From IMG/VR virus record IMGVR_UViG_3300034012_000235, positions 1 to 58,209 of that record: a stretch of DNA of 58,209 nucleotides, one strand, 5' to 3'. Below the pieces are notes generated by a model. That model saw only the letters and a program-made list of their open reading frames with translations, was not told where the DNA came from and searched no databases. Below, piece by piece: positions 12,060 to 48,400 of the stretch (positions are counted from its first letter, which is position 1; each line of letters begins with the position of its first letter). The stretch comes from a virus. Its lineage: Duplodnaviria; Caudoviricetes. Both the position numbers and the translations under genes were made by a program.

Positions 12060-12974
12060 TTAGACTCCCGGCGTGCCGTACATGGCGCGAGGATCGGTGA
12101 AGCCGACGTCGTAACGCTCGGTGGCCTTGTAGCGCATCGAGTCAGTTTCGAAGTCACCTTCCATCGTCTTCTCCAGCTTGCGGCGCATCAGCAGCTTCAT
12201 GCCTTCCGGAGCATCGGTCTGCACCCACCATGCGGAGGGGTTGGTCAGACGCGACAGAACAGCGGCACCCTCGTCCAGCAAGCCGATAGACTTGATGGGG
12301 TTGATGTCGTTGTTCGCGTTGCCAGCACGCAGAACGCTCTTCAGCAGCACTTCAGCTTGGAAGACGTTGCCAGGAGCCACCACCAGTTGGCGGGGAACCA
12401 GACGGATCTTCTTGCCGTTGTTGTCCACAGCCTGACGGATCTGAATCAGCATCTGCTCCAGAGAGGTCTGGGACAGGTTAGCTGCAGTCGTCAGCAGGTT
12501 GGAGAACGTGCCGCTCACGATGGGGTGAGAAGCGCTGTTCAACTGCACACCGTCGCCGCCAGGATACGAGCTATTGAAAGCGCGGTTCAGCACGTTGGCC
12601 GACAGCGTTTCCTTCGTCTCGATCAGCGACTGGGCAAGGTGACGGGCGTACACCTGACCAATACGGATGTGATCGCCGTCCTCAACGAGCACCTTGGTCA
12701 GCGCGAAGGCCAGACCGTACACGCTGTAGACATAGCGCTTCAGGAACAGAACACCACCCTGCTGGTACGAAACCGGAGTGCCGTCAGGCAACTGCGGAGC
12801 CGCGCCAAAGCCGTACAGAACCGGCTCTTCGTGGTAGTTACGGGGGATACCTTCTTGTTCGCGGAAAACACGCGACCACTCATCGGTACGTTGGTCATAC
12901 ACGCCATCGAAGCATTCGTTGAGGATAGGCTCAACGATTGAACGAAAGTCGGTACTGCGCATCGGGGCTGCCAT
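12060..12974 (-). CDS. Major capsid protein (Mu gpT-like, HK97 fold)
   Basis: 304 aa; LVVAP, DFETDSMRYKATERY, DPRAMYGTPG motifs; head-module position. Confidence 0.88.
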   Translation of the reverse strand: MAAPMRSTDFRSIVEPILNECFDGVYDQRTDEWSRVFREQEGIPRNYHEEPVLYGFGAAPQLPDGTPVSYQQGGVLFLKRYVYSVYGLAFALTKVLVEDGDHIRIGQVYARHLAQSLIETKETLSANVLNRAFNSSYPGGDGVQLNSASHPIVSGTFSNLLTTAANLSQTSLEQMLIQIRQAVDNNGKKIRLVPRQLVVAPGNVFQAEVLLKSVLRAGNANNDINPIKSIGLLDEGAAVLSRLTNPSAWWVQTDAPEGMKLLMRRKLEKTMEGDFETDSMRYKATERYDVGFTDPRAMYGTPGV

Positions 12975-15692: not shown

Positions 15693-15839
15693 TCACTTCT
15701 TCTTAGTTGCCTGTGATAGACCTCCTTGCTTGGGTTTGTCGCCACCTTGCATGGTTTGCCCGGTAATCGGGGCACCCGCTGCCATACGCTTGTGCTGGGG
15801 CACAAGAACGCTCTTCTGCTCTTGATCACTGGTAGCCAT
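15693..15839 (-). CDS. Small basic protein (48 aa; not in ORF track)
   Basis: Manual translation MATSDQEQKSVLVPQHKRMAAGAPITGQTMQGGDKPKQGGLSQATKKK; AAGGA SD. Confidence 0.65.
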   Translation of the reverse strand: MATSDQEQKSVLVPQHKRMAAGAPITGQTMQGGDKPKQGGLSQATKKK

Positions 15840-18372
15840 ACTGGTTTCCTTTCGTTGAAAAGTCCATGACGGTCTTGTCTTGGTCGTGTCTCAACCTAGC
15901 CGCATCCCGCGTCAAACGGGCCGTCTCGATGCGCTCCTTCATCTGCTGGTCACCCTTAGCGATAGCCAGCTTCAGTTGGAGATCCTCCATAGCCAGAGCC
16001 TGCTCATCCTGCAGCTTCTTCATCTGCATCTGAATGTCAGACTCCAACTCTTGTCCCTTCAGTTGCATCTCTGCCTGATCGCGGGCCTTACGGCGCTCCG
16101 TCTCAGCCATAGAGGTCTGCAACAACACTTGTCCATCAGGCGTCAGTTCAGGCTTCGGCTTGAACTGCTGCATCGTCTGAACCATCTTCTGGATCACAGG
16201 CATGATGCCCGCCAGCGTCTGCTCCGTATCCATGACCACATGCTGCGCTGCAACACCGATGATCTTGTCGATAGGCTTCGGATCAGCCAGCAGTGCGTAC
16301 TCTTCGGGCTTCTCACCCAAAGACTTCTGCACATAGCCGTTCATGCGGTTCAAATACCACAAGGCCAAGTGCTGCTTGATGTGCTCCATTGCCTTTGGCA
16401 GGTAGTTCGGAGCAATCAGAGGGCTTCCACCAAACACCGGGTCTTTGGCGTAGTCCAAGTGCGCCTGAATGTGGCCCAGGTGATCCTGCTCCGGGTAAGC
16501 GTAGGCTGACTGACCAATAGTCATCGCCACGTTCTCGTTTGCGGCGTCTTGCTTCTCAGGAGAAGGCGTATCAGGCATCAACTCATTGATCTGAGGCACC
16601 TTGATCTGCTTCAGGAACCGCATGACCACCGCTTTGCGGTTAAACAGGTCAGGATTCTTCTCCATGATGGTCATGACCGCTTGGGTCTGAGCCATCCGCT
16701 GGGTTTCAGAGAAGATATGCGGGTCAGAAACAGGAATAACGTCAGTAGAACGAGCAAAGTCGTCCCGCTTGATGTCCAAATCCTCTACAACCTCGCCGCG
16801 GCGCATGTCCTCCAGATACCAGCGGTTGATACGCTGCAAAATCTTGAGAACTCGGCCCTGAGACTTGTGCAAACGGGCGTGAATGCTTGAGAAAACCGCT
16901 GCACCCTGCTCAATCAGGGCCTGCGTCGTCCCAACAGGCGCATTTGCGTTGACATCGGCAATCTTTTCTTCCGATGTGGTCACCACACCCTTGGCAGCAC
17001 TCGTCAACCAGCCCAGAAGCTCGAACAAAACCGGGCTTGGCGGGTTGAAAGGCATCGGCATTGCCAGCTTGCGCACATCATCAACACCGGGAGCCGCCTC
17101 AATCTCCGCAACTTGCGTCACTTCGACCTGCTGAGACTGACCCGACACCTTAGCTCCCTTGAGCTTCAGGAGCGTTGCAGCGTTGTTGATGTGGGCAGAG
17201 TCCAGCAAGGCCCGCAAAGCGCCTGTAGCGGCCGCGGAGAGGCCTCCAATGAGGTGCGGCAGGCCAACAGCATAGGCTCCGCGCCACGGGATGAACTTGA
17301 ACTCGACAATCCAGTCGAGCTTCGTCATCGTGTCGTCGCCCTCTTCCCAATTCCGGTACAGACCAACGACTTCTGAGTCCAAGTCATCGATCATCAGGAT
17401 GTAAGGAGCCGACTCACCCTTCGTAACCGGGTCGTCTTCCAGTTCCAGCCATGTGTAGATGTGATACACGCGGCGGATGCCGTCTTCGTTGTCGTTCTCT
17501 GACTTGCCTTCGATCTTGTTCGTGGCCTTCTGAGCGCCAGTAGGCTCAGGATCCATCGTTGCCCGGATGAAACTGACGTCTCGGTACATGCCCGAGTCAA
17601 TCCGACGCTTGAACTCGTAGTCGGAAATGTCGTCAACCTCCGTTACACGCTGGGCAGTGTAGAAACTGCCCGCGGCAAATGGCAGAAGTACGTTGTCAAT
17701 CGGCAGGAACTGGGCACAAGGACGCTTCTTCTTGTCGTCGTACCAAAGTTTCAGGTATTGCGAACCACCGAGAGGCAACTGAGTGAGCATCTGCTCCTGC
17801 TCATCAGCAAATTCCTCGACCTGATCGGTCAACTGCCAGTTCATGAAGTCACGTTTGCGCTCGGCAATCGCAACTTTCTCCTCGTCCACATCACCCAGAA
17901 TCTGAGTACGGGTCGGGCCATCAGGCGGAAACAGTTCTTTGAACGCCCTTGCAGCGAAATCCACGCAGGCTTCGGCCATCACAGGGTGGACAACCTTGGA
18001 TGCACCGTTGAAATTAGCACCACCGGGAGCGTCATTACCCAATCCAGTACGGCGGATACCCTCTTCGTACTGCTTGTCCCGCTGCTTTCGAGCCTCTTTG
18101 TCCTTCTCAACCAGTTGGATGTACCGCAAGGCCATCGAACCCAGGTCAAGAGAATCAATTACATCGCCGTCAGCTAGGTTCTGATAGAAGTCTTCATCCT
18201 CCATCGGACCTTTGCCTTCCATCCGGACAATTGCAGAGCCATCAGGAAGCTCCTCAATCTCGGATTCATCAAGGTCTAGTTCAACCTCAACAGGCTCATC
18301 AGGTGCTGGCCCCCCTTGTTCGCCCCCCACAAAGCGGTTGAACTCGGGATCAATCGGGAATTCGGTTGCCAT
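15826..18372 (-). CDS. Portal protein (P22-like, long C-terminal coiled coil)
   Basis: 848 aa; HPVMAEACVDF, FMNWQLT, APVGTTQALIEQG motifs; downstream of terL. Confidence 0.88.
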   Translation of the reverse strand: MATEFPIDPEFNRFVGGEQGGPAPDEPVEVELDLDESEIEELPDGSAIVRMEGKGPMEDEDFYQNLADGDVIDSLDLGSMALRYIQLVEKDKEARKQRDKQYEEGIRRTGLGNDAPGGANFNGASKVVHPVMAEACVDFAARAFKELFPPDGPTRTQILGDVDEEKVAIAERKRDFMNWQLTDQVEEFADEQEQMLTQLPLGGSQYLKLWYDDKKKRPCAQFLPIDNVLLPFAAGSFYTAQRVTEVDDISDYEFKRRIDSGMYRDVSFIRATMDPEPTGAQKATNKIEGKSENDNEDGIRRVYHIYTWLELEDDPVTKGESAPYILMIDDLDSEVVGLYRNWEEGDDTMTKLDWIVEFKFIPWRGAYAVGLPHLIGGLSAAATGALRALLDSAHINNAATLLKLKGAKVSGQSQQVEVTQVAEIEAAPGVDDVRKLAMPMPFNPPSPVLFELLGWLTSAAKGVVTTSEEKIADVNANAPVGTTQALIEQGAAVFSSIHARLHKSQGRVLKILQRINRWYLEDMRRGEVVEDLDIKRDDFARSTDVIPVSDPHIFSETQRMAQTQAVMTIMEKNPDLFNRKAVVMRFLKQIKVPQINELMPDTPSPEKQDAANENVAMTIGQSAYAYPEQDHLGHIQAHLDYAKDPVFGGSPLIAPNYLPKAMEHIKQHLALWYLNRMNGYVQKSLGEKPEEYALLADPKPIDKIIGVAAQHVVMDTEQTLAGIMPVIQKMVQTMQQFKPKPELTPDGQVLLQTSMAETERRKARDQAEMQLKGQELESDIQMQMKKLQDEQALAMEDLQLKLAIAKGDQQMKERIETARLTRDAARLRHDQDKTVMDFSTKGNQYGYQ

Positions 18373-21300: not shown

Positions 21301-21746
21301 GCCTTCGGCCCCAGAGCCTTTCCTGCGGCCTTAGCGCCTTTCAAGGCACCTCTGGCTAGGGTAGTGCTACCCATGCCCCCAGTAAGCGCTCCTAGGCCCG
21401 ATGCGAACTTGGCAGCAGGCCTCTCATCGCCCCCAGGCAACCACTCTTGATAGAACTCAGACGTAGGCAGGGCTGGCTCTTCAGGAACTTTCACACCGCC
21501 TGGGCCAAAGGCGAAGTTAATCCCCATCCTGCCTAGAGCCTCGATGTCCCCAGGCAACCCAAGAGTTCCAGCTACCCAGCCTCTTGCAAGCTGGGCAGGC
21601 ATGTTCACATCACGGGAGGCGTTCAGCTTCTCAGCACGCTTACCAGATGAAGGCATAACGCCGAATGCGGCACCACCCTTACCAGTAACACCTCGTCTGC
21701 GGGCAGCCTCAATAAGCGCCTGCCTGTCCTGCTCGGGTAATTCCAT
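18375..21746 (-). CDS. Large multidomain (polyvalent-type) protein with a PcfJ-like domain
   Basis: EGDVMGHCVGGY...IYSLRD...PHVTIEV...QIKGKGN matches the PcfJ-like pattern; a second ~380-aa domain follows; AGGAG SD. Confidence 0.7.
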   Translation of the reverse strand: MELPEQDRQALIEAARRRGVTGKGGAAFGVMPSSGKRAEKLNASRDVNMPAQLARGWVAGTLGLPGDIEALGRMGINFAFGPGGVKVPEEPALPTSEFYQEWLPGGDERPAAKFASGLGALTGGMGSTTLARGALKGAKAAGKALGPKAAEMAEGYLLKSGLAPSVIKPKGGNWLSGSVEGATKPLVPKPGARGRPASETMQEMEATYPPDVLQRLSPETAETVNRSFAALKPDVAVEDWINTKLNKYIKNEMGTPEDPVRALAERGVLHVDPGQVGVNRYRAPAERNVQGYPRYGVSEAARAWEDSTDVAIKPWTAGEISQTWPKEVVERDPWLAKVDPGSKVYEPRRASVEGLGFDHLIDELRNATRADSDLPANLRWKPEDLKKVTMAQAVERVAKINEWRAAQKAEADAAKARNPATFTYKEYPEKGMQWVQLKAPSDKTMPLEERKALIKKLEAEGRNPATWPRETLEEALKYEGDVMGHCVGGYCPDVESGKSRIYSLRDKKGEPHVTIEVEPGILEGAVSRLPKKERDELRNEIKRRHFAGREPTRVEDSDRMFELVEQEYLKRYGMPPDEIIQIKGKGNRAPKEEYLPMVQDFVKSGKWGSIGDYKNTKLRERAEMFDAIDLNKLKAAGHDVPEHLTPEEAKSFADKLYTIETGKNPETGQAYAKGGLVTDTDAIAAKLKSTGMDDEKAFMQALRMADARQEAHMAGGGLAKLLKGAKTIGNYQALPLKLPRAPNLPPQEITKTAERVARQQMGQHVRQSDKIAANLAGRSVKEADKLQKMQVDIQPTKEVMQSAVVPEEVGQVRIALPGDISVADQMLMEVEGLPIGSVQEGGAKYGLGKQDLDDPRFWASNEGPAQIFQNKVTDLANMYETPEILAQHLAMGHDAMNFAQHFADANLLAIQASNVHPKAAEMFNKMIREGYEKINPKTKEKVRITFPDFPGIEDYQQAYKATQENPELRKWFNDRMKKESITAPLGIPSGKEIEYAIMEPSLRNMEHSMTGLSVGRMKPGASLIPGSSHKTYSHDIAGQALGHTKELTPIELAFPDASAHIKATKRPQDFTPTIQKLFPHQVVDDQYINQLGEYYNRLKQIRGYKKGGEVKKSGLSVLNKAII

Positions 21747-21772
21747 GCCTGCTCCTAACGTGCGGCTGAATC

Positions 21773-22009
21773 TTAACCCCTGCCTATCTCTTTAAGCAAA
21801 CGAGGACCAGCCGTGTAATGGAAGCGCCAAGACTTGGTTGCAGGATCTCTCTTGCGGGTTCTGACAACCCATCCCTTCTCCTGCGCATACTGCAACGTCC
21901 TCCTGACGCTGCCAGGATCCATACCCCACTTCAACCCTATGTCATGGTTCGTTAGCTCTTCTTCAGGGTTGACCGCAAAGAACACACACAGCGGAGTAAC
22001 TATGCTCAA
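21773..22009 (-). CDS. Winged-helix DNA-binding protein
   Basis: LTNHDIGLKWGMDPGSVRRTLQYAQEKGWVVR HTH plus wing. Confidence 0.65.
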   Translation of the reverse strand: MSIVTPLCVFFAVNPEEELTNHDIGLKWGMDPGSVRRTLQYAQEKGWVVRTRKRDPATKSWRFHYTAGPRLLKEIGRG

Positions 22010-22042
22010 GGTAAGGTCCGGGAACTTGATGGGGCGGCAAGT

Positions 22043-22351
22043 CTATGCCAGAAGGATTGACTGCAAGTGCTGGCGCTCAGCTTCACCCAAGTCTTTGATG
22101 GTCGGATCTTGGCCGTTTAAGAACCGCACAGCAACCTTGGCGTACTTCTTCGCCTTCTTGCCCTTCTTGTGCGTCATGGCCTCTTGAAGCTGCCTGCCCT
22201 GACTTTCAGTGATCAGCCGACCCTTGTTCTCAACATACCAACCAGACTTTAGCGGATACGCTATCCCAAGAATCTTGGCCTCAACCCTCGTCAACGAAAC
22301 AATGCCGTTGAGCCGCTGATACTTTGCTTGTAGGTACTCGCCGACTGTCAT
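22043..22351 (-). CDS. Basic hypothetical protein downstream of the structured RNA
   Basis: 102 aa; LTRVEAKILGIAYPLKSGW motif; Lys-rich patch. Confidence 0.7.
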   Translation of the reverse strand: MTVGEYLQAKYQRLNGIVSLTRVEAKILGIAYPLKSGWYVENKGRLITESQGRQLQEAMTHKKGKKAKKYAKVAVRFLNGQDPTIKDLGEAERQHLQSILLA

Positions 22352-22737
22352 CTCTATCTCAATAACTACTTAGTAGTTCTCCACCGAATACCACTTAGCT
22401 ACTTCTCTTCAACACCCAAGCGGTTCCGAACGGCCCTCCCCTTTCCTCGCCTAGACGAGGTTCGGTTCAGGCTTACCCAGTGCGGACACGGTAGACCCTT
22501 GACAGCCGTTCGGGTCATGGACGCTATCTACCCCATCCATCTGCGCGGTGTTGCAGACCCTAATCCCACCAGTACCGCTTCTCACTCAGGACGCTGACGA
22601 TGCCGGTAGGCCTGTCCATCACTGAGCCAGTCAGAGCAGAAACGACAAAGCCCTAGAGTGGCCACCCGGTGGAACCCCTCTCGGGGCAGAGAGGGCGGAT
22701 GGTCGCTCTAGGGCTCTTAGTCGGGTTCCACACCAAC
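22352..22737 (-). ncRNA. Candidate large structured non-coding RNA or leader (~385 nt)
   Basis: No ORF of 60 aa or more; about ten complementary segments including long-range and pseudoknot pairings; several pairs are G-U only on the minus strand; preceded by a sigma70 promoter. Confidence 0.65.
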
Positions 22738-22743
22738 AGGGAC

Positions 22744-22773
22744 AGTATAGGCACTGAGCCCTGCAGGTGTCAA
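22744..22773 (-). promoter_or_regulatory. Sigma70-type promoter TTGACA-N18-TATACT
   Basis: TGTCAA 22768-73 and AGTATA 22744-49 on the plus strand. Confidence 0.75.
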
Positions 22774-22777
22774 GCGG

Positions 22778-22969
22778 TCAAATCATGTAGGGGCAATACT
22801 CAGTGAACAGTTGCTGCACGCAGTTGCGCTGTGAGTCGCAGTACACGCCCAGCCAGCGCACCCCGTTCATGGTGTTGACCATGTTGCAGGACCTCAACGA
22901 CATGAACGCCAGCGCAGGGCCAGACGCCAACAGCGCCACCAGGATCACAGGCACATAGAACTTCTTCAT
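22778..22969 (-). CDS. Small exported Cys-rich protein
   Basis: Signal peptide MKKFYVPVILVALLASGPALA, 42-aa mature part with 4 Cys; AGGAG SD. Confidence 0.7.
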   Translation of the reverse strand: MKKFYVPVILVALLASGPALAFMSLRSCNMVNTMNGVRWLGVYCDSQRNCVQQLFTEYCPYMI

Positions 22970-22979
22970 CTCATTCTCC

Positions 22980-23156
22980 TTAACACGGTTGGTGATGTAC
23001 CCATACTTCGTTGCCAGTTTCTGGGCACTTAAAGTCTAACCTAGGAAAGCACCAACACAAAGGGGACATCACATGCCCCTCTCCCAAGAAGTGCGTCCTG
23101 ACAACAGGCTCACTCGGAATATGGGTTGGTTCTTCTTTGTCTGCCAGTGTCTGCAT
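22980..23156 (-). CDS. Small His/Cys protein (start uncertain)
   Basis: H-x5-CWCFP...WVHH motif; overlaps the terL end. Confidence 0.5.
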   Translation of the reverse strand: MQTLADKEEPTHIPSEPVVRTHFLGEGHVMSPLCWCFPRLDFKCPETGNEVWVHHQPC

Positions 23157-24528
23157 AGTCTTCTTCATCCCAGTCATCTCTCGGTGGCGGATCAACCTCA
23201 AGCCAGCCAGCGTCACGCAAGAACCGCAGGGCCTGCGTGGCAGAGTCAACGAAGTCATCGTGCGTTGTCTCAGGGAAGCTGCAGATCTGACTGACGAACC
23301 CTTCAGCCCAATCCCTGACGTAGCCCTTCCTCTGGGATGACTCAGGTATCCACACCCGGCCGCGGCTGATGATGTTGCTGACGATGTTCAGGCGCTGCAG
23401 CTTGTCAGCCTTGCCGGGGTTATACGCCCTCACAGGCAGATGCGCTCTCTGCAGGTCTTGGATCAGAGAAATGCCTGCGGACTTGTCCTCGATGAGTATG
23501 AGATCCACGCGCTTCTTCTCTTTGCCCTCACCGAAGATCGTCTCGTACTCGTCGATAACCTTCGGTCGCAGGTCGGGATACTGCATCCTCTCCTGCCAGC
23601 AATCAATAAGCATCGCAGACATAGGCCCGTCAAGTGGCTTAAAGACTCCCCAGGTCGTACAGGCAGTTGGGTCATTCTGTGTCTTCTCGCTGGTGGCGCA
23701 GTCGTAGGACTGTACGATGTACTCGAACTTCGGGAAGGCCTTGCCATCAGGCCACAGCTTGAACATGCTGCGCTGCACAATGCCACCCTCTTCAGGGTCA
23801 ATGATCTCAGCATGGATCTCCTGCCTGCCCAGCTTCGTCCCCTCGTACTGCAGGATCTGCTTCTGGAAGGACGGCGCTAGGTTCGCCAGATTGGCGTAGG
23901 TGCTGGCAGTCGTCAGGGCTACATCATCACCCTCACGCCCCACCAGTTCAACGATCAGGTCCTTCGGCCGCGGGGTGGTGGTGGCGACGATGCGGGTTCT
24001 GGTTCCCAGGCGGACGGAGAACTGGATCTGGTCCCAGGCTTCCTGCAGGTACTCCCAGGCAGCAAGCTCATCCAGCCATGCCCCATGGAACTGCGGACCC
24101 CGGAAGCGCTCAGGCTCAGACGCCGGAATCCCCTTAATAAGTGAGCCGTTGGTCAGCTTGAGTTCGTGGTGCTGCTTGTTGTAGTCAGCAATCAGCGGGG
24201 CAGGAATGACGTTCAGAAGGCCGCTATCGCCCTCGAAGCACGTAGCCTTGACGTCAGCACTGGTCGGCGCTCCAACGAGCCAGCGTGTCCCTGGCTCAGT
24301 CCAGGCCCACCAACCTACCTGCTCAGCGGCCGTCCGCGTCTTGCCTGCACCGCGTCCAGCTAGAAGCAGCCAGATCGTCCACCAGTCGCCCGGAGGTGGC
24401 ATCTGGTGCTTGTGTGCCTTCTCGATCCAGTTAGCCCTCCAGAGGTACGCTAGACGCTTCTCAGGGGGTAGTGTCTTGAGAGCCTGCAGGACGTCAGGCT
24501 GCTGGAAGGCCGTGGCTAGATCACTCAC
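23110..24528 (-). CDS. terL: Terminase large subunit
   Basis: Walker A AGRGAGKT, Walker B AWLDE, TTTPR motif III, RNase H-like domain QSYD...IEDK...HDDFVDS. Confidence 0.95.
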   Translation of the reverse strand: MSDLATAFQQPDVLQALKTLPPEKRLAYLWRANWIEKAHKHQMPPPGDWWTIWLLLAGRGAGKTRTAAEQVGWWAWTEPGTRWLVGAPTSADVKATCFEGDSGLLNVIPAPLIADYNKQHHELKLTNGSLIKGIPASEPERFRGPQFHGAWLDELAAWEYLQEAWDQIQFSVRLGTRTRIVATTTPRPKDLIVELVGREGDDVALTTASTYANLANLAPSFQKQILQYEGTKLGRQEIHAEIIDPEEGGIVQRSMFKLWPDGKAFPKFEYIVQSYDCATSEKTQNDPTACTTWGVFKPLDGPMSAMLIDCWQERMQYPDLRPKVIDEYETIFGEGKEKKRVDLILIEDKSAGISLIQDLQRAHLPVRAYNPGKADKLQRLNIVSNIISRGRVWIPESSQRKGYVRDWAEGFVSQICSFPETTHDDFVDSATQALRFLRDAGWLEVDPPPRDDWDEEDYADTGRQRRTNPYSE

Positions 24529-25084
24529 CGGCAGTCTTGCGCAGTTCAGCGTTGGTCACCAGAGCCTCCAGCAGCTTATCCGCCTTAATCTCAGCTTCGA
24601 CTTTGATCGGGGACTCAGCGTCACCCGCAACAGCGATCCTGTCGCCGTAGCGTTTAGGGTTCCATTTAGCTAGCAGCTTCAGCGTGATCTCAGCCCGAGC
24701 CTTCACCAACTGCACATAGCCCGGATCAATCCGGCCGCCACCCTCAGTCAGCATGCGCTCAGGCTCGTCATACATCTCAGCGTAGGCCTTCTCAGCCATT
24801 GCGTCCTGTCCAGCTTCCCGCGCCTGGGCGATGCGTTCCGAAAGCGTGGCGTCCCGCGACATCCACTGATACACAGCAGTCCAAGCTGGCATGTGATCGT
24901 CTCTGCAGATCTGACGCAGTGGCTCACCGTTACTAAGTCTTTGGCAGATCTCTGCTGCAAGCTCAGGCGTGTACTTGGAGGGCCTGCCGATCTTCTTGGG
25001 AGTCTTTGGAAGTGCTGAAGCCACCTCAGCCTTGATTTCTGGCTTTGGTGGCTCCTGGGCTGTTTGAGTGGCTTTGCGGGGCAT
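24521..25084 (-). CDS. terS: Terminase small subunit (Sf6 gp1-like)
   Basis: GRPSKYTPELAAEICQRLSNGEPLRQIC HTH, KWNPKRYGD; overlaps terL start. Confidence 0.9.
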   Translation of the reverse strand: MPRKATQTAQEPPKPEIKAEVASALPKTPKKIGRPSKYTPELAAEICQRLSNGEPLRQICRDDHMPAWTAVYQWMSRDATLSERIAQAREAGQDAMAEKAYAEMYDEPERMLTEGGGRIDPGYVQLVKARAEITLKLLAKWNPKRYGDRIAVAGDAESPIKVEAEIKADKLLEALVTNAELRKTAGE

Positions 25085-30855: not shown

Positions 30856-31058
30856 GGGGCACCAAAGATGTCTGGACGAAGTTCCATCCGATCCACCGCA
30901 CCTTCAGTGACTTGATGGATAGCGGTAGCCAGAGCCGGGGAACAAGGGACTCGTCCGTTGACTAGCAGGGACATCCAAGTCTCACTCACGCCGATTGTCC
31001 GAGCCAGCTTCTGCTGAGACCCTCGGCCTTGAGACTTCAACCATTCACGCAGGGACAT
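30852..31058 (-). CDS. Cro / YdaS-like HTH regulator
   Basis: QQKLARTIGVSETWMSLLVNG...ELRPDIFG; GGAGG SD; start at 31058. Confidence 0.8.
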   Translation of the reverse strand: MSLREWLKSQGRGSQQKLARTIGVSETWMSLLVNGRVPCSPALATAIHQVTEGAVDRMELRPDIFGAP

Positions 31059-31080
31059 AGAACCTCCAAAGTTTGATGTG

Positions 31081-31109
31081 ATCTTACACAAGTGTCTGAG
31101 TGTTGTAAA
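31081..31109 (-). promoter_or_regulatory. Leftward sigma70 promoter TTTACA-N17-TAAGAT
   Basis: ATCTTA 31081-86 and TGTAAA 31104-09 on the plus strand. Confidence 0.7.
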
Positions 31110-31114
31110 GGGTA

Positions 31115-31143
31115 TTGTATTGTTTCGTTAAACGCACTATGAT
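31115..31143 (+). promoter_or_regulatory. Rightward sigma70 promoter TTGTAT-N17-TATGAT
   Basis: Direct read; heads the only plus-strand operon. Confidence 0.7.
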
Positions 31144-31169
31144 CTGGGCACTTTGAAGGAGCGAAGGCA

Positions 31170-31304
31170 ATGACGTTAGACGAAGAAATCAGCGAAATGA
31201 TGCAAGACCTCCGGAAGAGACTGTCCGAAGCACTTGATCGGGCAGAAGCTGGTGAAGCTACAGCGCAAGACTGGATGCTGATCCGTAGACAACTTGGACT
31301 TTAA
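31170..31304 (+). CDS. Small helical early protein (44 aa; not in ORF track)
   Basis: MTLDEEISEMMQDLRKRLSEALDRAEAGEATAQDWMLIRRQLGL; AAGGAG SD. Confidence 0.65.
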   Translation: MTLDEEISEMMQDLRKRLSEALDRAEAGEATAQDWMLIRRQLGL

Positions 31305-31313
31305 GGAAACATC

Positions 31314-39499: not shown

Positions 39500-42400
39500 T
39501 TAACCCCTAGCAGACTTTTGCTTGCTGGTCTTCTTGAGGTACTCAAGAGGCGACTTGGCAGGCGGTGGGAGATCCTTCGGACCAGACGACCTCGCGTGAG
39601 CACGGATGGAGTGCATCATGTCGTAGAGTTTATCTGATCCAGCCTTCGTTGATCCATTTCCTAATGCAGCAACTACGTCTGCAGGAAACACAAATTCACC
39701 ATCGGCCAGCATCGCAGGAATGTCGTCAGACTGCCCATCCCCAGGACCAGTCACTGCATCCCCGTGGCGGAAGTCAACACGGGCCTTGCCTGAGTGGTGA
39801 ACCACATTCAATCCACCCTTCGCGTACTTGCCGTATCGGGTTCCACCGCCAGAAGCAAACAGCGGAGTCGCAAGTCCACCAGCCTTGAATCCAAACGGAC
39901 TCTGCTGCTCTTGTGACTTGTTCTCTCCATACGGATCGAGCAGAGCATCGATGCTGGTCTCTTTCCCGTATGCGTAGCGGTCAGGCTGAGTTTGTTGTTG
40001 CTGCTGCGGTGCCATAGTGGTTTGCTGCTGTGTAGATGGAGTGAAATCACCCTTCTCGACCTGCGAGAAGAATGCTGCCAAGGGGCCAAGGAACTTAGAT
40101 TGCCCAGATGTTTGAAGCGGAGAGACAGTAGGCGCAGCTTGTGTTTTGGACGGACCCGCTGCAGGCTGCAGCATCTCCAAGCCAGTCTGACGCCGCTGCA
40201 GAGCTAGTCGTGCCGCCTTGTCTTTTTCTTCGTCAGCTATACGCTGACGCTCCATCTGCTGAAGCTGCCCAGTCAGATCCGTTTTCAGGCCAGAAATTTC
40301 GCCAAACAAACCAGTCGGCGCCCACCGGCTTCCGGGAGCAAACTCAGGAGGCTCACCACTACCCGTAGTCGCTCTATTGAGGAAGTCGTAATCAGACTGG
40401 TCGATCTTCCCGTCACGGTTAACGTCATACGTTAAGTCAGGGGCCGTTGTGACTTCACCCTTGATAACACTGTTGACGTAATCTAGATCGGCTTGGGTAA
40501 CTGCTTGTGCAGGTTTGCCAAGCAACGTAGACGCCTCGTCAATCTGCTTCTGAAGCGCAGTTTGACCACTTGTGATTTGTCCAGAAAGTTGAGTCTTGGC
40601 CTCAGTGATCTGGCCTTGAAGATTCTGAGCAGTAGTGCCCAGTTGAGTAGCAACATCTCCAATAGCGCGAGACAGCGCCTGATCCCGAGACAGACCCTGA
40701 GCCTCATACTCCGAAGCCCTGGTATTGATCCTAGCCTCAGCATCAGACAGAGCCGTCCCCAGCCCTTCTAGGCCGGTCGTAATCTGTTGCCCTAATGCAG
40801 TCTGAGACGCCTCGATCTCTGCCCGCAGATCGGAAGCGGTAGCCCCAAGCTGGGACAGAATGTCAGCCCTGCTCGTACCAAGATCAGTTGCAACCTGAGT
40901 CAATCCGGCCTGGATCGCCTGATACCGAGTGAGACCCCGAGCTTCTGCTGCGGCAATCGCATCATTCAGGCGACTCTCGGTGGAGGTGATCTGCTGACCA
41001 AGTGTCTGTTGAGAGGCTTGGATCTCTGAGCTAAGAGCAGACTGCGTTTGACCAAGTTGAGTCAACAGATCCTGGCGAGTAGTTCCCAGGTCAGATGCGA
41101 CTTGATCAAGACCAGACTGGATGGCCTGATCTCGCGTCATGCCACGCGCTTCTGCCGCGGCAATTGCTTGAGTCAGGCGCTGCTCAGTAGACTCAATCTG
41201 CTGGCCCAGAGCCGTCTGAGAAGCCTCGATCTCTCCACGAAGGGTAGATTCAGTCGTCCCAATCTGGCTGATCAAATCGGCCTTGGTCGTCCCAAGATCC
41301 GCAGCTACCGTGTTCAGCGCAGACTGCAGAGCTTGATCTCTGCTCATGCCACTGGCTTCCGCCGCGGCAATTGCGCTTTGCAGTCTTGACTCGACATCGC
41401 CCAGTTGCGATGTGAACTGCGACCTGAGAGCCTGCTCTGTGGTACCCAATTGAGTCAGCAGATCCGCCTTGGTAGTACCAAGATCAGAAGCCACAGAGTT
41501 GATTGCAGCAGTGATCGCTTGGTCACGGCTCATCCCCGCAGCTTCTGCGGCAGCAATGGCACTGGAGAGCCGCTGCTCTACATTGCCAATCTGCGTTTCA
41601 ACGCCGCCCAACCCGGCTTGAAGCTCTTGCCTGAGAGTCTGTTCAGACTTGCCGATCTGACCTAGAAGGTCATTCTTCGTGACGCCCAGGTCAGAAGCTA
41701 CTGAATCAATTGCCGCTGTCAGAGCCTGATCTCTGCTCAACCCAGAGGCTTCTGCGGCAGCTATGGCATCTTGCAGGCGCTTCTCTACGCCCGTCAATTC
41801 TTTTCTGACGCCACCAAGCTCAGTAGCAAATTGAGTGCGCAGCGTTTCTTCGCTCTTGCCAATCTGAGACAACAAGTCCGTCTTGGCAATTCCAAGATCG
41901 CCAGCTACTGCTTGGATCGCTGCATCTAGTGCAGCATCACCTTGCAATCCTGCCGCCTTGGCATCAGCAATAGCCTGAGTAAGCCGCGTCTCTACGCCGC
42001 CCAGTTCTTCCCTTACTCCGCCAAGTTCAGTTGCAAAGTCAGTACGAAGAGTTTGCTCCGTCTTCCCAATCTGACCAAGCAACGATTCTTTGGTAACACC
42101 AAGGTCAGCCGCAACTGACTGAATGGCTTGATTCAGCGCAGCATCACCAGCCAACCCTGAAGCCTTGGCCGCTGCAATTGCGTCCTGTAGGCGGGTTTCT
42201 ACGTTCCCAATCTCAGTAGTGACAGCACCTAATTGGGTTGAGAAGTCAGTTCTAAGTTGTTCTTCTGTCTTGCCAATTTGACCCAGCAAGTCCTGCTTGG
42301 TAGTGCCAAGCTCCGAGGATACCGAGTTAATCGCAGCTTGAAGTGCCGCATCGCCTTGTAGCCCTGATGCTTTGGCTGCAGCAATAGCCGCAGTGAGTCT

Positions 42401-45400
42401 GGACTCAACATTGCCAAGCTCTGCAGTAACTCCACCCAGTTGCGTAGAGAACTCAGTCCGCAACGCAGCTTCAGTAGTACCAAGCTGAGACAGCAGGTTC
42501 TCGCGGGTAGTTCCAAGATCACCGGCAACGCTCTGAATTGCCGCCTGCAAAGCAGCATCACCCTGAAGCCCAGAAGCCTTAGCAGCATCAATGGCCGCGG
42601 TAAGTCGAGACTCGACGTTCCCAAGTTCAGCTTGAACCTGACCCAGTTGTGTAGAGAAGTCTGTCCTGAGTTGCGTCTCAGTCTTCCCAAGCTGGCCCAA
42701 CAGGGCTTCCTTGGTGGTCCCCAATTCAGAGGACACAGAGTTGATCGCCGCTTGCAGTGCAGCATCACCTTGCAGGCCAGACGCCTTGGCGGCATCAATT
42801 GCAGCACTCAGTCGTGTCTCTACATTGCCGAGTTCAGTAGTTACAGCACCCAGTTGCGTAGCAAAGTCGGACCTGAGTTGAGTTTCGGTCTTCCCGATCT
42901 GCCCCAGCAGAGCTTCTCTGGTCGTTCCGAGATCGCCAGCAACAGACTCAATAGCCGCATTCAGCGCAGCATCTCCAGCAAGCCCGCTTGTCTTAGCTGC
43001 CTCGATGGCAGTATTCAGCCTTATCTCTACGTTGCCAAGTTCGGTAGTAACCGCGCCGAGTTGAGTAGAGAAGTCACTACGCAACTGCGCTTCTGTTTTA
43101 CCGATTTGGCCGAGCAATGCCTCCTTACTGGTGCCCAGATCCGCCGCAACTGCACTAATCGCAGATTGCAACGCAGCATCACTCGACATCCCTTGAGACT
43201 TCGCAGATTCAATAGCTGCGGTCAGTCGGCCTTCAACATTGCCAAGCTCTGTACTGATGGAACCCAGTTGCGTAGCGAATTCAGTACGCAGTTGGTTTTC
43301 AGTCTTTCCAATCTGGCCTAACAGAACCTCTCTGCTGGTCCCCAAATCAATCGCAACAGCGTCAATTGCGGACTGCAGGGCTACATCACCTTGCAGACCT
43401 TCGGCCTTAGCAGACTCAATAGCAGCAGTAAGCCTTGACTCCATTGCTGGATCAACGCCACCAGTAGCCAGTTGGTTAATCTTCTGCGCCAAAGAGTTAT
43501 ATCGCGCCGTATCAAGAGACTCTGCAGCCTTCCCGCTTAGGTCAGCCTCCAAGTATTTGCCGACCAGCGCCTGGACATCTGCCTCCGTGGGATCAGGCAA
43601 TCCAAGCTGCCTATACGCTTCGCGCACTTCTTCAGCAGCAACCACCAACGGATCAGCAAAGCTCTCAACAGCAGTTTTGGTAGATGCTTCAATGGGATTC
43701 GCAGTTGTGGCAACGAAGCGATTGATCTCTTCTTGTGTGGGATTGGTGTACCCAACTGCCTCAAGCATCGCACGGGCTTCTGCCTCCGTGACCTGACGCT
43801 CACCCACATAAGTTTGAGTGCGTCCTCCAAGCTCAGACTCTGCATACTGACCAACAAACTGATCCGCCGCTTGTAATGCAAGTTCAGGCGTGTAGCCAGC
43901 AGCGATAAGACTATCAACCGCCTCTTGGCGCATCACAGCCAGCGGATCTGCAAACTGTCGCGTCAGTGTTTCAGCCTCCGATTGATCTCTTTGACCAATA
44001 AAGTCAGCCGCCTGCTCATCTGTCAGCGTGACGCCCTGCTGCGCTGCAGCAGCCTTGACTTCTTGAATATCGATGTAGTTGCGGTCTACGTAGTTAGATA
44101 CCGCTGCAACCAAATCTGCTTCGCTCTTGACCCCAGCGAATGACTCAATGGTCTGCGTGTCAGGATTGAAGTAGCCATACTGCTTAAACGCATCAGCGGC
44201 TTCTTTGGTCGTGACGGCAGCATCATCAAACTTGACATCAACCGCAGTCGCAAGATCGGAACCTTGAAGACCAAGGCTCTGCAAGTTCTGCGTTAGCGTT
44301 TGCGCGTCAGGCGATTGCGTGACAGACAAGGCAATATTGCCAATGTCTGCGTTGTCGTAGCCAGTGCCAGCAAGGTTATCAAGATTGGTCTTGTAGGCCG
44401 TCAGGCTGAAGTTGGGGTCCGCAGTGGCAACATCAGCCACGCGGCTGAGATCGCTTAGCGATACCTGAGCATCGCCAACCTTCGCCGTGATGGCATCAAA
44501 GTTAAACGATCCCGGCTGGATCTGTTTAACTCCGCTCAGATACTCACTGAGGGTGACAACATTGCCGTTTACATCACGGGCAACGGGCAGGTTTTGGCTG
44601 ATCGCACTCGGTGCCATCAAGCCGCTGGCAACACCCATCTCCAAGATGCCGCCAATTGCTCCGGCGTTACGAGACTGCTGCCAGTCCACTTGGCCGAAGG
44701 AGTTGTACTGCATGGAAGCGTTCTCAACGAACTCGCTTCCCCAGCCCTCGGCGTACTGCTTGGCTGCCATACCAGCAAACTGAGGGGCGGTGATCTTGCC
44801 CACATCCCCCATGAACGTCTTGACCAAAGACGCATCTGCGACACCAGATAACAAGCCAGCAGCCAGCGCACCTTGAGCGCCCGCCTTCCAGCCTTGTGTC
44901 ATTGCTTGGTCGTGCGTTCCACCTTGCTTGCGGATGTTGTCGTAGGTCTCGCCAAAGTTGGCACCAAAAGACTCTGCGCCGTTTAAGAAGACGTTGGTTC
45001 CAGTTGCTGTTGCGTATGCAAGACCCTTACCTGCGACACCCAAAGCCAGACGGCCCATGCCGCCAGATGCAAGCAAAAGAGGTATTTCCTGTACGCCCTC
45101 TTTGCCCAGCATGGTCAAAGCGCCAGCAGGGTTATCGGCAATAGCCTTAACTGTTGCGCCTAGCGTGCCCCAAACACCCTTTGCGTCCGAGATGGATTTG
45201 AGGATGTTTTCTTCTTGCTGCTTGGTGCCGGCAGATTGGATGCTTGATCCGTACTCTGATACCTTTTTTGCAGCTTGTGCCGCAGCGTTGTCCCTGCTTA
45301 CAAGCCCAGTAGCAAAAGCCGCATCACTGAATATCTTGACCAGTTCTCCAGTACCTTGCAATGTCACAGACACCGCATCTACCAATCCTTGCTTCTGTCC

Positions 45401-48400
45401 AGTTGTCAGGCCGCTGGACTTAATAAAGTCCACAAGGTACTTGGAAGTGTCGATGATTGACTCACCAACACCAGATGTTTTTGGATCAAGTTTTGACGCC
45501 GTCTCCAAGTACAACAAAGGATCAGCAGACCTTGGATCTTCGGGTGACAACTGTTGAATCTGCCGCGCAAGATCCAAGTCTTCAAATATTCCCTTAAGAA
45601 CCCCCTCTGTTTTATCGTTAATGACGTAAGCAATACTGCCATCAGACAAAACTATTTGTGATGCCGAATTGTCTTCAAGAGCCTCTTTGGCTGTTGCAAG
45701 TCTTACGCCAGAAAATCCTTTGATTTCATCCAAAGCACTCTGAGATAGATCTGCTTTGTTTTCGTCAACTATGGCAGTGCCGCGAATGTCCACTCTAAAC
45801 GGCCCACCAGCCTGTGCATCTCGCACCTCTTGTGCGCTGCGCGTGTTGTTGTTCAGGAAGTCTTGAGCAGATGCCGCCTTGATCTGGCTGACATCATTGC
45901 CGTAAACAGCATGGACGCCTGCACGAATCTGTGCGATCTGATCTTGCGACAGGTCGGCCATCGACAGACCATTGGCTTCGACTACGCGCTGGATCAGCTT
46001 GGCCGTCTCTTGTTGAAGCCTTCCATCAAAAGCCGCAGCAAGGTTACTGTCATTGACTAAATAAGGCTTGTTGTTGAAGATGTAATTGTTGTAACCCGCA
46101 GCCTTAGCAGCAGCCTCTGTGGCCGCTTGGTTCATTGCTGGATCGCCTTCATAGGTCACCGCACGAACGTCTGCCAACCGCTGAGCATATGTCTCGGCAG
46201 TTGCCTCAGAACCGCGCATCATCATCTGAAGATGATCTGCCGTGAGATCCTTTTCAGACAATCCAGCTTTCTTCCAGAGGTCTACAGCCTCTTGGCCGTC
46301 AGTGCTGTTTTTGTCGGCAACAAACTCGTTGTACTTGCCAGCGATGATGTTCTTGGTGTCGGCCTCTGATCGACCCAGCAAGTCCACCATCTCATCATTG
46401 GTCAGCGCTATCTGGCCCTTGCCAATGTCTCGCAAGAACTGATCAAGCTCATCAGAACTAACATTACCCCTGTCGTAGGCGATATTGCCAACCTCAGTTC
46501 TTGCTGAAGACTCAGACAGGCCAATAAGGCCCATGAGTTCAGCCTCAGTGGGCTCTGTGCCTACGTTTTGCCGCCAGAACTGCCGAGCTTCTGCCTCCGT
46601 CGTGTACAGCGCATTGGCGGCTGCAGTCGGATTCTGGCTGTTAAACAGGTAGTCAAGAGCGCTCTGATTGAGCGTTCCGCCTTGACCTTCCAAGACATTA
46701 GCCGCTTGCGTGAGCTTAGTGATCCTGTCTTGGGCCTGCATCTCGTTCAAGCCCAGAAGACTATTCTTCTGTTCTTGCGTCAGCGGCAGACGATTGCCTG
46801 CGGTGCCCTGGATGATTTGATCAAGCTCTGCAGCGTCAGTCTTGTCCTTGTCGTAAATAAAACTAGCGGCTTGCTGCTCTGACAAGCCAACCATTTGACC
46901 AAGCTCAGCCTCTGTAGGCTCGGTGCCAAACGATGATCTCCAGAATGCCCGCGCCTCATCAAGACTTGTGGCAAGCGTGTCTACATATCTGGCCGGATCA
47001 CTTTGCCGCAGGACTTCACTTAATTGGGAATCAGAAAGCTGCTGACCACCAGTGTCTTGGCTGTAGGCGCTTTGCGCGTTGCGAATGACAGAAGACTTTT
47101 GGTCTTGTACTACTTGGGCTGCAGCCGCCTCATCTCTTCCCGTGATCTGCTGTATTTCGCTGCTTGTTGGCTGCCTGCCAAAAGCCTGCTCAAACAATGC
47201 AGTGGCTTCCTGACTGGAGGTACCTGCGCGATCTACGTTCCCAACCAAGTCACCATTGGTCGCATACTGAGCAAGCTCATCATCCGTAGGATCTCTGCCT
47301 GTTTGCTCCTTAAACAAAGATTTTGCTGTGGCCGTATCTTCTATGCCTTTTAGAGCAAGCGCAGCGTTCTTCGTTTCTTGTACTTGAAACTCTTGAACTG
47401 CCTTATCTAAATTGTCAGCACTTGTTTTGTACTGACCAACATACTGCTCGTATTGGTTTTTAAGCCCATCTAAAGTGCTGCTATACGAATTAAAAGTCCC
47501 AATGTTTTGGTTATAAAACTCGTTGTATGACTCAATAATTCTATTAGCGTTATTTGCCTTATTATTTAAGTCATTTAACTTCTCTTCCGCCAAACTATAT
47601 GCAAACTCCCATTGTTCGCCTCCGGGGCGCAAAAACGTAGTATAGGAACCATTCTCATCACTATGGTTATAGAACTGATAGCCCTTTGATGTCAAATACG
47701 ATTCGTCGTTTGACCAACCATAGTTGAAGACTTCATTTACCGCGTTATAAAGCCTTTTTGCGTCATCGTAGTCTGCTGTTGCGTTTTGAACGTCTGCATA
47801 CCTATTGTTTATATCCTTAGCAAGATTGTTGTACGCATCAACATAATTTTGTTGTTGCGCCAAATTGCTGTCAATTTGATCCTTTACATTTTTAACATTG
47901 TCGGCTTCTGCTTTTACTTGTGCGCTGTAATCTTTGACGCCGTCTTTGATGTAATTAAGGCCAATGCCTGCGAATGACGTAAGAGCACTTTGCGTAAACG
48001 CATCCTTAGCGGAGCCTCCAAGGATGCCTGTGGCAATAGCTGTCTTTGTCGCCCGCTGGAAAGCGTCTCCAATCTGAGAGCCAGTGGGCTTGCTCAGAAT
48101 GTCAATGTCTTTTGTGAACTCGCCTACAGCAGTGTTGACACCAGCGCTAAGTCCAGCCGTCAAGCCACCTTTGATCAATGCTTCAATTGGATCACGCCCA
48201 CTCAACAGGGCAGATGTACCGCTGCTGATAGCGCCTGCAGCAGCGCCACCCAAGACATTGCCCATGATGACGGCGGTCTTACCACCTACACCTGAAGCAA
48301 TAGCGTTAAACGCTACATCGCTTGCGATGGAGCTTGCAATTCCGCTTCCTACGCCAGCAGTGATACCTCCAAGAACGGCTGACTTCAGAACATCACTGAC

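Follow-up and report, generated by a model that had tools for sequence, protein, structure and literature searches.

Several described systems, most of them from phages, invite comparison with the element reported here. The packaging RNA (pRNA) of phi29 multimerises into a ring via two complementary loops, HK022 put and the EAR element of Bacillus are RNAs of processive antitermination, and phage tRNAs are cut out of longer phage transcripts. The seg and mob genes of T4 are free-standing homing-endonuclease cassettes, and the late leaders of lambdoid phages are represented by the PR′–tR′ arrangement and, in Stx phages, by the short StxS transcript. Here we analysed a complete Caudoviricetes record of 58,209 nt with direct terminal repeats at its ends (IMG/VR IMGVR_UViG_3300034012_000235; the whole record is called the window below). 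A first-pass annotation made from the letters alone had proposed a new, densely paired non-coding RNA on its minus strand (22640–22352), coupled to a small lysine-rich protein of 102 amino acids and lying between terminase and portal. We assign this RNA to an already catalogued but little-described family, Betaproteobacteria-1 RNA (Rfam RF02932), extend the predicted anatomy of that family, and place the window's copy in an exchangeable cassette next to the terminase genes.

When the whole window was scanned against Rfam, a single match emerged, to RF02932 (E = 1.8e-9; score 63.8 bits, gathering score 49.4), which covered model positions 1–120 of 120 on the minus strand. The match was reproduced in a second run, and none of 14 control genomes gave one. 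All three consensus helices, P1, P2, and P3, can form in the window, the cmscan alignment flagged no non-standard pairs, and most of the conserved loop nucleotides are kept. The copy departs from the consensus at the conserved junction, where it reads GGAUGGGGUAG in place of GGUGGCGAAG (its score is still above the cut-off), as well as in small insertions and a remodelled 3′ domain. On these grounds we regard the element as a divergent, phage-borne member of the Betaproteobacteria-1 RNA family. The idea of a structured non-coding RNA on the minus strand, 3′ of a near-consensus promoter and 5′ of a small open reading frame (ORF), is therefore borne out by the Rfam match and a promoter scan, and its claim to be a new RNA class falls with the full-length match above the gathering score—the outcome of the very cmscan check that the first-pass annotation had set. 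Its view that the RNA is neither tRNA nor transfer-messenger RNA agrees with ARAGORN, which finds no such gene in the whole window. The family presumably goes back to a survey of 224 motifs and has no known function; the word ‘Betaproteobacteria’ is absent from the main text of that survey (PMC5737381). Full-text literature searches by family name or Rfam accession returned no functional study of Betaproteobacteria-1 RNA.

The fold originally drawn for the RNA was built from complementary segments, every one of which is present in the window (plus-strand coordinates): AAGCGGT 22418–24 with ACCGCTT 22574–80, CCGAACGGC 22426–34 with GCCGTTCGG 22505–13, GGGTC 22512–16 with GACCC 22556–60, CTCAG 22585–89 with CTGAG 22622–26, and TCTACC 22527–32 with GGTAGA 22490–95. 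Positions 22450/22455 and 22522/22535 are indeed C/A on the plus strand and consequently G–U on the minus strand only. Folding of the 289 nt likewise favours the minus strand (z = −2.08, with 5 of 200 shuffles as good) over the plus strand (z = +0.44). The 230-nt RNA module alone scores z = −1.26, with 27 of 200 shuffles as good, and by our own arithmetic 290 nt would hold ~0.16 perfect 9-nt complements and ~2.6 of 7 nt by chance. Thermodynamic support for the RNA is modest and, taken alone, would make for a weak finding.

To sort the pairings, canonical family members were gathered with a pattern derived from the Rfam consensus, both in bacterial genome contigs and in IMG/VR viral contigs. 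The former yielded 80 loci, 13 of which were dropped by eye as chance matches in coding DNA (L087, L094, L097, L098, L099, L115, L120, L130, L131, L143, L155, L157, and L160); the latter contain the pattern in at least 120 contigs, and the counts of viral RNA loci given below rest on 80 loci of these. Since RNAalifold on plain MAFFT alignments had columns out of register and missed two helices of the 3′ region (P4 and P5, below), we turned to alignment-free tests, in which duplex energies or matches within a sequence (self) are compared with those of pairs mixed between sequences (cross)—a crude measure, weakened by kinship among the sequences. Nine atypical members were left out of the core-pairing and box tests on 32 sequences (L090, L104, L106, L110 copy 1, L114, L124, L137, L153, and L162).

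Measured this way, part of the original fold stood. CTCAG/CTGAG is P1 of the Rfam structure. GGGTC/GACCC corresponds to a covarying pairing between the P2 and P3 loops (mean energy −7.23 kcal/mol self versus −3.78 cross), for which at most 10% of cross pairs were as good in 17 of the 32 sequences. The hairpin at 22517–40 matches a pairing that crosses P3 (mean −6.62 self versus −5.46 cross; 10 of 32 sequences). The two nested long-range helices, in contrast, showed no difference between self and cross (−8.09 versus −8.35 and −6.49 versus −6.37), so that this part of the fold is not conserved, and neither the TCTACC/GGTAGA pairing nor the hairpin at 22541–56 was seen by eye in canonical members. 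RNAalifold on 27 sequences (plain MAFFT) recovered P3 and a pseudoknot, PK1, which joins the 3′ part of the P1 loop to the 5′ part of the P2 loop and covaries strongly (columns 47/76: GU 10, CG 7, AU 4, GC 3, UG 2, UA 1); another, PK2, is backed by the self-versus-cross duplex energies. The window itself can form the loop pairings CGUCAG/CUGGUG (P1–P2) and GGGUC/GACCC (P2–P3), together with AUGGA/UCCAU between the strand preceding the GGUGGCGAAG position and the start of the P3 loop. In the core, three helices are linked to one another by loop–loop pairings.

Canonical members do not stop where the Rfam model does, but run on for ~95 nt past position 120, a stretch that Rfam does not model. 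From 5′ to 3′ it comprises a short helix, P4, with GGCUCC and a box that we call X1 in its loop; then the conserved GAAGG and the long helix P5; and lastly CACC-AA with a second box, X2. For P5, at least 7 contiguous pairs were found in 66% of 96 distinct sequences versus 23% of cross pairs, with 47 different helix sequences, whereas support for P4 is weak, with five or more pairs in 84% of self and 65% of cross comparisons. A covariance model of the extension, R1, built from 35 viral sequences, found 55 sites at E <= 1e-3 in the independent set of bacterial genome-contig loci, and the anchor motifs of the extension occur in 74 of the 80 viral loci. We take this conserved 3′ domain of ~95 nt to belong to the family, the predicted unit of which is ~220 nt rather than 120 nt. 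By eye, the GGCGAAG–P3–tail and GUGAAGG–P5–tail modules look like a tandem duplication. In one viral variant (L251, 1640–1760) the interval that separates the P3 tail from the 3′ strand of P5 is missing, as might result from recombination of the two repeated modules.

X1 and X2 are the same 6–12-mer within one molecule and differ between lineages (for example GGACAGGA, AAAGGCAA, ACGGGAAG, and UCCAGCAU). The exact stretch common to both averages 6.1 nt, a length matched by no more than 10% of cross comparisons for 18 of the 32 sequences. In a set of 51 viral sequences chosen because their boxes share 6 nt or more, the box length is 6–12 nt and the spacing 46–61 nt in all but one (91 nt). Within the 8-kb loci, no exact reverse complement of the boxes lies nearby and no G–U-tolerant partner is consistent; the window's own genome holds no box complement beyond chance level. 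A perfect 10-nt complement in its portal gene (~16677–16686, minus strand) was dismissed, as ~0.1 are expected by chance according to our own arithmetic. The boxes also invite comparison with the T4 gene 60 bypass, which uses matched take-off and landing sites ~50 nt apart; this was rejected on finding stops in all three frames between RNA start and X1 in 72 of 108 distinct RNAs. CsrA sites, mimics of the Shine-Dalgarno (SD) sequence, target-site duplications, and tRNA-like CCA ends were considered by eye as well, and none fits all box sequences. Finally, the family resembles phi29 pRNA in that the window's copy is a structured phage RNA encoded near packaging genes. The likeness ends there: the boxes are direct repeats instead of complementary loops, no covarying complement was found for them, and many RF02932 members lie after replication genes or in chromosomes.

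In the window, the 3′ domain is divergent. Its P5 has been remodelled to CCGAAC/GUUCGG, with an inner hairpin at 22445–60, and the whole region aligns over its full length with the GCGAUUCC subtype (L214 and others; 36 invariant columns in 7 sequences). Homology to the canonical extension is likely, albeit short of proof. A gapped similarity of the two boxes (CCGCACUGGGU with CCGC-UUGGGU) and their resemblance to the L214 boxes were judged by eye. As to the borders, contigs from two metatranscriptome runs of one study match the window over precisely 22412–22634 and continue into unlike flanks of at least 106 and 214 nt. Because these contigs match only that stretch, we place the module at 22634..22412 on the minus strand, a predicted length of ~223 nt. 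The RNA had been thought to run straight into the 102-amino-acid ORF; instead, the conserved module ends near 22412, with ~60 nt of untranslated leader to follow.

Upstream of the RNA, the proposed promoter was recovered by a scan: TTGACA-18-TATACT matches the consensus at 11 of 12 positions, and a 1.5-kb region contained 2 such sites versus 0.9 ± 0.8 in shuffles. An alignment shows, by eye, a promoter-like TTGACA … TATACA at the equivalent place in a close relative (L002), where the spacer differs, and TTGACA-18-TAACAT precedes a similar hairpin in two others (L212 and L071). This hairpin, between promoter and RNA, is ~70 nt long with a 7-nt bulge on its 3′ side and folds far better than expected (−53.6 kcal/mol, z = −4.91, 0 of 200 shuffles as good). 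It shows two compensatory pairs relative to L002 and, by eye, more relative to L212. Among 75 distinct viral loci, 41 have such a hairpin with U-tract directly 5′ of the RNA, and in 16 of those 41 a sigma70-like promoter lies 0–45 nt before it, often with an 18-nt spacer (3 in the control window). The structure looks like a promoter-proximal intrinsic terminator, as far as primary sequence and predicted folding go. The arrangement recalls the lambdoid PR′–tR′ leaders, with a strong sigma70-type promoter, a terminator-like hairpin within ~100 nt, and accessory cargo just 3′; it differs in being optional, in a far longer hairpin with a conserved 7-nt bulge, and in that no Q-like factor or site was identified. 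A terminator-like hairpin with an unusually long stem is also found on plasmid pLS20, where the long stem of TerR is reported to make the terminator resist processive antitermination (PMC10325885). The two come from different organisms and are unrelated in sequence; resistance of the TerR kind is a lead for what the window's hairpin might do.

Promoter, hairpin, RNA, and ORF together occupy a hypervariable slot after terL. A separate set of 80 viral loci, with terL 73–99% identical, was compared (some end too early downstream). Three relatives have an empty slot, with 22982 joined directly to 22046 (L012, L013, and L015). In L002 (same contig as L007) promoter, hairpin, RNA, and the 102-amino-acid ORF are all present, and the RNA is nearly invariant while its flanks vary. 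L014 has kept 22750..22351, with the RNA 91% identical, and carries an 81-amino-acid ORF in place of 22350–22047. In L006 and L009 all of the sequence up to 22628, at the 5′ edge of the RNA, is retained, after which they diverge; the cargo of L006, and of L005, is a 215-amino-acid HNH endonuclease behind a 250-nt leader, and L009 ends before its cargo. Further contents were found in L003, L010, L016, and L018, and a 205-amino-acid ORF in L019. More distant relatives (L063/L212, L070, and L071; terL 77–78% identical) have a canonical RNA after terL, behind a promoter–hairpin unit. The comparison of slot contents leads us to treat the RNA (22634–22352 with its leader) and the ORF (22351–22046) as separate modules. 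The cassette is optional and swappable, and consists of the promoter, the bulged hairpin with its U-tract, the RNA, ~60 nt of untranslated leader, and a small ORF. The coordinates of these features and of their neighbours are collected in Table 1.

Table 1 Features of the window around the RNA cassette, in minus-strand order.
Feature	Position	Strand	Remark
terS	25084..24521	minus	
terL	24528..23110	minus	
92-aa ORF	after terL, before variable slot	minus	
63-aa ORF	22778..22969	minus	upstream edge of slot; hydrophobic, signal-peptide-like N-terminus; several cysteines
sigma70-like promoter, predicted	22744..22773	minus	scan
Very long bulged hairpin, then U-rich UUUGUCGUUU	22640..22717	minus	intrinsic-terminator-like
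Core of Betaproteobacteria-1 RNA, helices P1/P2/P3	22497..22627	minus	RF02932 match
3′ domain, divergent	22412..22496	minus	P4-like hairpin (UACC/GGUA), remodelled P5, two similar boxes
Box X1 CCGCACUGGGUAAG	22472..22485	minus	loop of P4-like hairpin
Box X2 CCGCUUGGGUGUUG	22410..22423	minus	single-stranded tail after P5
102-aa ORF	22043..22351	minus	N-terminal domain of phage HNH/T5orf172 nucleases; nuclease domain absent
78-aa MarR-like winged-helix gene	after variable slot	minus	barely over cut-off (27.2 vs 27 bits)
1123-aa protein with PcfJ-like stretch	after winged-helix gene	minus	
Portal gene	18372..15826	minus	phrog_1216, E = 3.9e-16
Capsid gene	12974..12060	minus	

The placement of the RNA between terminase and portal is thus right in a broad sense, with several genes intervening. 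With a crude greedy ORF call, 22352–22777 is, as had been noted, the largest ORF-free gap of the window. The runner-up, of 398 nt (30916–31313), lies near a switch of the coding strand, where divergent promoters are possible. The 63-amino-acid ORF at the upstream edge of the slot, which matched no Pfam or PHROG family, is found in the window, L006, L009, and L019 and not in L002 or L014; its presence is not tied to that of the RNA cassette, as would be expected of a moron. The HNH-gene leader of L006 (6877–7126) is unrelated to the RNA and contains two copies of an 8-nt box, AAGGAATC, that flank a G/C-rich hairpin, the second copy lying ~35 nt before the start codon. Elsewhere in the window, a single ORF of 3022 amino acids (39500–48568, minus strand) had faint PHROG matches only; giant virion proteins of this scale are known from some podoviruses. 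The runs that hold the window's phage derive from lake water and freshwater. BLAST of window positions 21700–23200 against 50,697 phage records gave no match.

Beyond this genome, Burkholderiales records account for most canonical copies, together with numerous IMG/VR contigs. Fourteen prophage loci have a Toprim-type gene, itself after a helicase gene, that ends within ~10 nt of the RNA on the same strand, and in viral loci without the long hairpin the RNA comes after the stop codon of a gene in its own orientation. Of 40 non-redundant members, 25 are followed within ~420 nt of the P3 pattern by the start of a co-oriented ORF with an SD-like sequence, and many phage copies end some tens of nucleotides short of the next start codon. 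ParB-like, NinB-like, and LysR-like labels of neighbouring genes were given by eye; Pfam confirmed the helicase and Toprim genes of L128 alone. The family is chiefly an element of phages and prophages. Several Paraburkholderia/Caballeronia records contain more than one copy (L102, L141, and L162 in one Paraburkholderia genome; two within 8 kb in L110; L136/L137). Some copies in these genera adjoin metabolic genes (a luciferase-like monooxygenase, an OYE-type oxidoreductase) and are not obviously prophage; a small Gly-rich ORF was noticed by eye upstream of copies in these genera.

What might such an RNA do? Our favoured reading, held tentatively, is that of a portable leader co-transcribed with the genes behind it, whose twin boxes are shown to a single trans-acting partner that controls the following message. 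We favour a leader because the RNA points the same way as its neighbours, shows by eye no terminator that belongs to it, ends close to the next start codon in many phage copies, and is exchanged together with the untranslated leader. The RNA would be transcribed together with whichever ORF follows; its compact, pseudoknotted fold would present a lineage-specific, purine-rich, single-stranded box twice: in the P4 loop and again directly behind P5, some tens of nucleotides upstream of the ribosome-binding site (RBS). A trans-acting partner, as two molecules or as a dimer, could attach to the identical boxes and thereby govern how stable the downstream message is or how well it is translated, and the long-stem hairpin upstream may limit or insulate transcription entering the cassette.

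A number of observations weigh against this reading. The genes 3′ of the RNA are functionally unrelated among loci, and in several Burkholderia/Paraburkholderia loci the next gene—LysR-type-like by eye—is on the opposite strand, so that a leader role cannot be universal. Neither a conserved RBS-hiding helix nor a terminator/antiterminator pair was found, and Rfam types RF02932 as an sRNA gene. The complement searches turned up no trans-acting partner for the boxes: no covarying complement was found over 170 nt on either side or within the core, and a complete 44-kb phage contains its 9-nt box three times in forward orientation and never as the reverse complement. In the window itself, R1 scores 8.1 bits (E ~0.045) with helices skipped, and the boxes are weak, their longest exact common stretch of 5 nt being reached by 13% of cross comparisons. 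Lastly, the contigs from RNA libraries mark the extent of the shared module and are proof neither of its transcription nor of silent flanks.

Several of these points would suit a stable RNA that acts in trans, cut from a longer phage transcript as phage tRNAs are, and serving as a decoy or sponge that titrates host or phage RNA or protein via its boxes. The Rfam type, the multiply pseudoknotted fold, two identical single-stranded boxes of the sort typical of multi-site binders, and chromosomal copies without a co-oriented gene 3′ all agree with such a role, as does the optional occurrence of the element among near-identical phages, reminiscent of accessory genes. On the other side, no terminator was seen by eye 3′ of X2 nor a conserved processing signal, contigs from RNA libraries continue past both ends, and no target with complementarity beyond chance exists in the window's genome, or any at all in the complete 44-kb phage. 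We consider this alternative possible, though on balance improbable.

Processive antitermination, in which the RNA would act in cis and modify RNA polymerase to read long phage operons through internal terminators, after the fashion of put or EAR, is unlikely. The RNA is pseudoknotted, frequent in phages, and sits inside operons, after replication genes or heading structural genes, as this role would have it. However, L012, L013, and L015 have the same downstream genes without the cassette, arguing that the operon does not need it; moreover, the RNA lies after rather than before the strong hairpin, and the lineage-specific boxes would be left without a role. More doubtful again is a self-cleaving or otherwise catalytic RNA that would process the polycistronic transcript. 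Highly conserved junction and loop nucleotides, several pseudoknots, and a position between genes in phages would fit a ribozyme, but no known ribozyme family was matched at Rfam gathering scores and nothing in the sequence points to a cleavage site.

Among the options listed in the first-pass annotation were a ribonucleoprotein and the remnant of an RNA-associated nuclease element, a dedicated unit in which the 102-amino-acid protein would bind the RNA. This protein matched no Pfam (E <= 0.01) or PHROG family, and no HNH catalytic domain was found in it. A word-based protein search returned a single near-identical protein, a Protein Data Bank sequence search with profile A4 gave 0 matches at E <= 1, and the ESM Atlas offered sub-threshold leads only (the top structural row being a GIY-YIG protein, TM 0.45). 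An exhaustive HMMER search identified 32 remote relatives at E <= 1e-3 among 1.84 billion representatives, which share an N-terminal domain of ~70 amino acids with an invariant W38 and nearly invariant Y6, E24, P33, L34, and G37; long, eukaryote-like matches (P0004, P0007, and P0010) were ignored as low-complexity Myb-type proteins. The suspicion that this domain is fused to HNH elsewhere was correct: Pfam HNH is present in P0012, P0015, and P0019, and P0023 continues into MUG113/T5orf172. The ORF therefore appears to encode a targeting-type domain of phage nucleases minus the nuclease, for which we infer a role in DNA binding. As with T4 seg and mob, an optional insert with its own promoter and upstream hairpin lies between conserved packaging genes, sister phages carry an HNH endonuclease in the same slot, and the ORF shares its N-terminal domain with HNH/T5orf172 nucleases; the difference is that the ORF of the window is without a nuclease domain.

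A self-contained RNA–protein unit is hard to reconcile with how the two parts travel. RNA and ORF recombine independently, as in L014, where the RNA is kept and another ORF follows (which resembles the N-terminal domain weakly; hhalign probability 40%, E = 2.9e-4). Counted from the RNA, an ORF with this domain comes next in 1 of ~67 canonical bacterial loci and in 1 of 80 viral ones; counted from the protein, 1 of the 7 viral loci with the domain has the RNA upstream, the other six being without it at E <= 0.1. The combination is known from the window and L002, from L156 and L173 (apparently one prophage), and from L250, and is not present in the remaining ~145 loci. Instead, the RNA also precedes unrelated ORFs, such as a family of small Cys-rich ones (~57–75 amino acids; HIW-G-DT-C … C-x2-C) in L070 (3872–4072), L071 (3624–3824), and L091; its member in L003 (2921–3145), with no PHROG family, sits behind another leader. 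That so rare a domain follows the RNA in independent contexts at all speaks for a link, yet its pairing with the RNA is rare from either side and its fusion to DNA nucleases elsewhere suggests that it binds DNA, which makes a dedicated ribonucleoprotein very improbable. RNA and ORF are, rather, recurrent neighbours in the same kind of accessory slot and not an obligate pair.

That the window's copy is a decaying remnant or a chance match is scarcely credible: its fold is no better than that of shuffles, its core departs from the GGUGGCGAAG consensus, and its extension is divergent, but the full-length match exceeds the gathering score by 14 bits, its pairs are all standard, and the module is near-invariant in L002 beside varying flanks and recurs in other samples with different ones.

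Returning to the leader with twin boxes, a bolder version of it would combine core, extension, promoter, and long-stem hairpin into a widespread and hitherto undescribed phage expression device, in which a co-evolving trans factor—for instance, a host RNA or an RNA-binding protein that acts as a dimer—would recognise the two boxes and thereby turn the cassette on or off. The pseudoknotted scaffold would then show its boxes on either side of a hairpin, just 5′ of interchangeable accessory genes. We offer this as speculation that is probably wrong in at least part; the box–hairpin–box leader of L006, with AAGGAATC twice, hints at a general logic.

In sum, the finding as first stated is explained by a catalogued orphan RNA family, whose anatomy and phage context are now better defined: its abundance in phages and prophages, a predicted unit of ~220 nt, lineage-specific twin boxes, the association with a promoter and long hairpin, and an exchangeable module by the terminase genes are new. 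The element may prove to be one more orphan structured RNA; if, however, its boxes are read by a specific partner, it would represent a new type of phage gene-control module.

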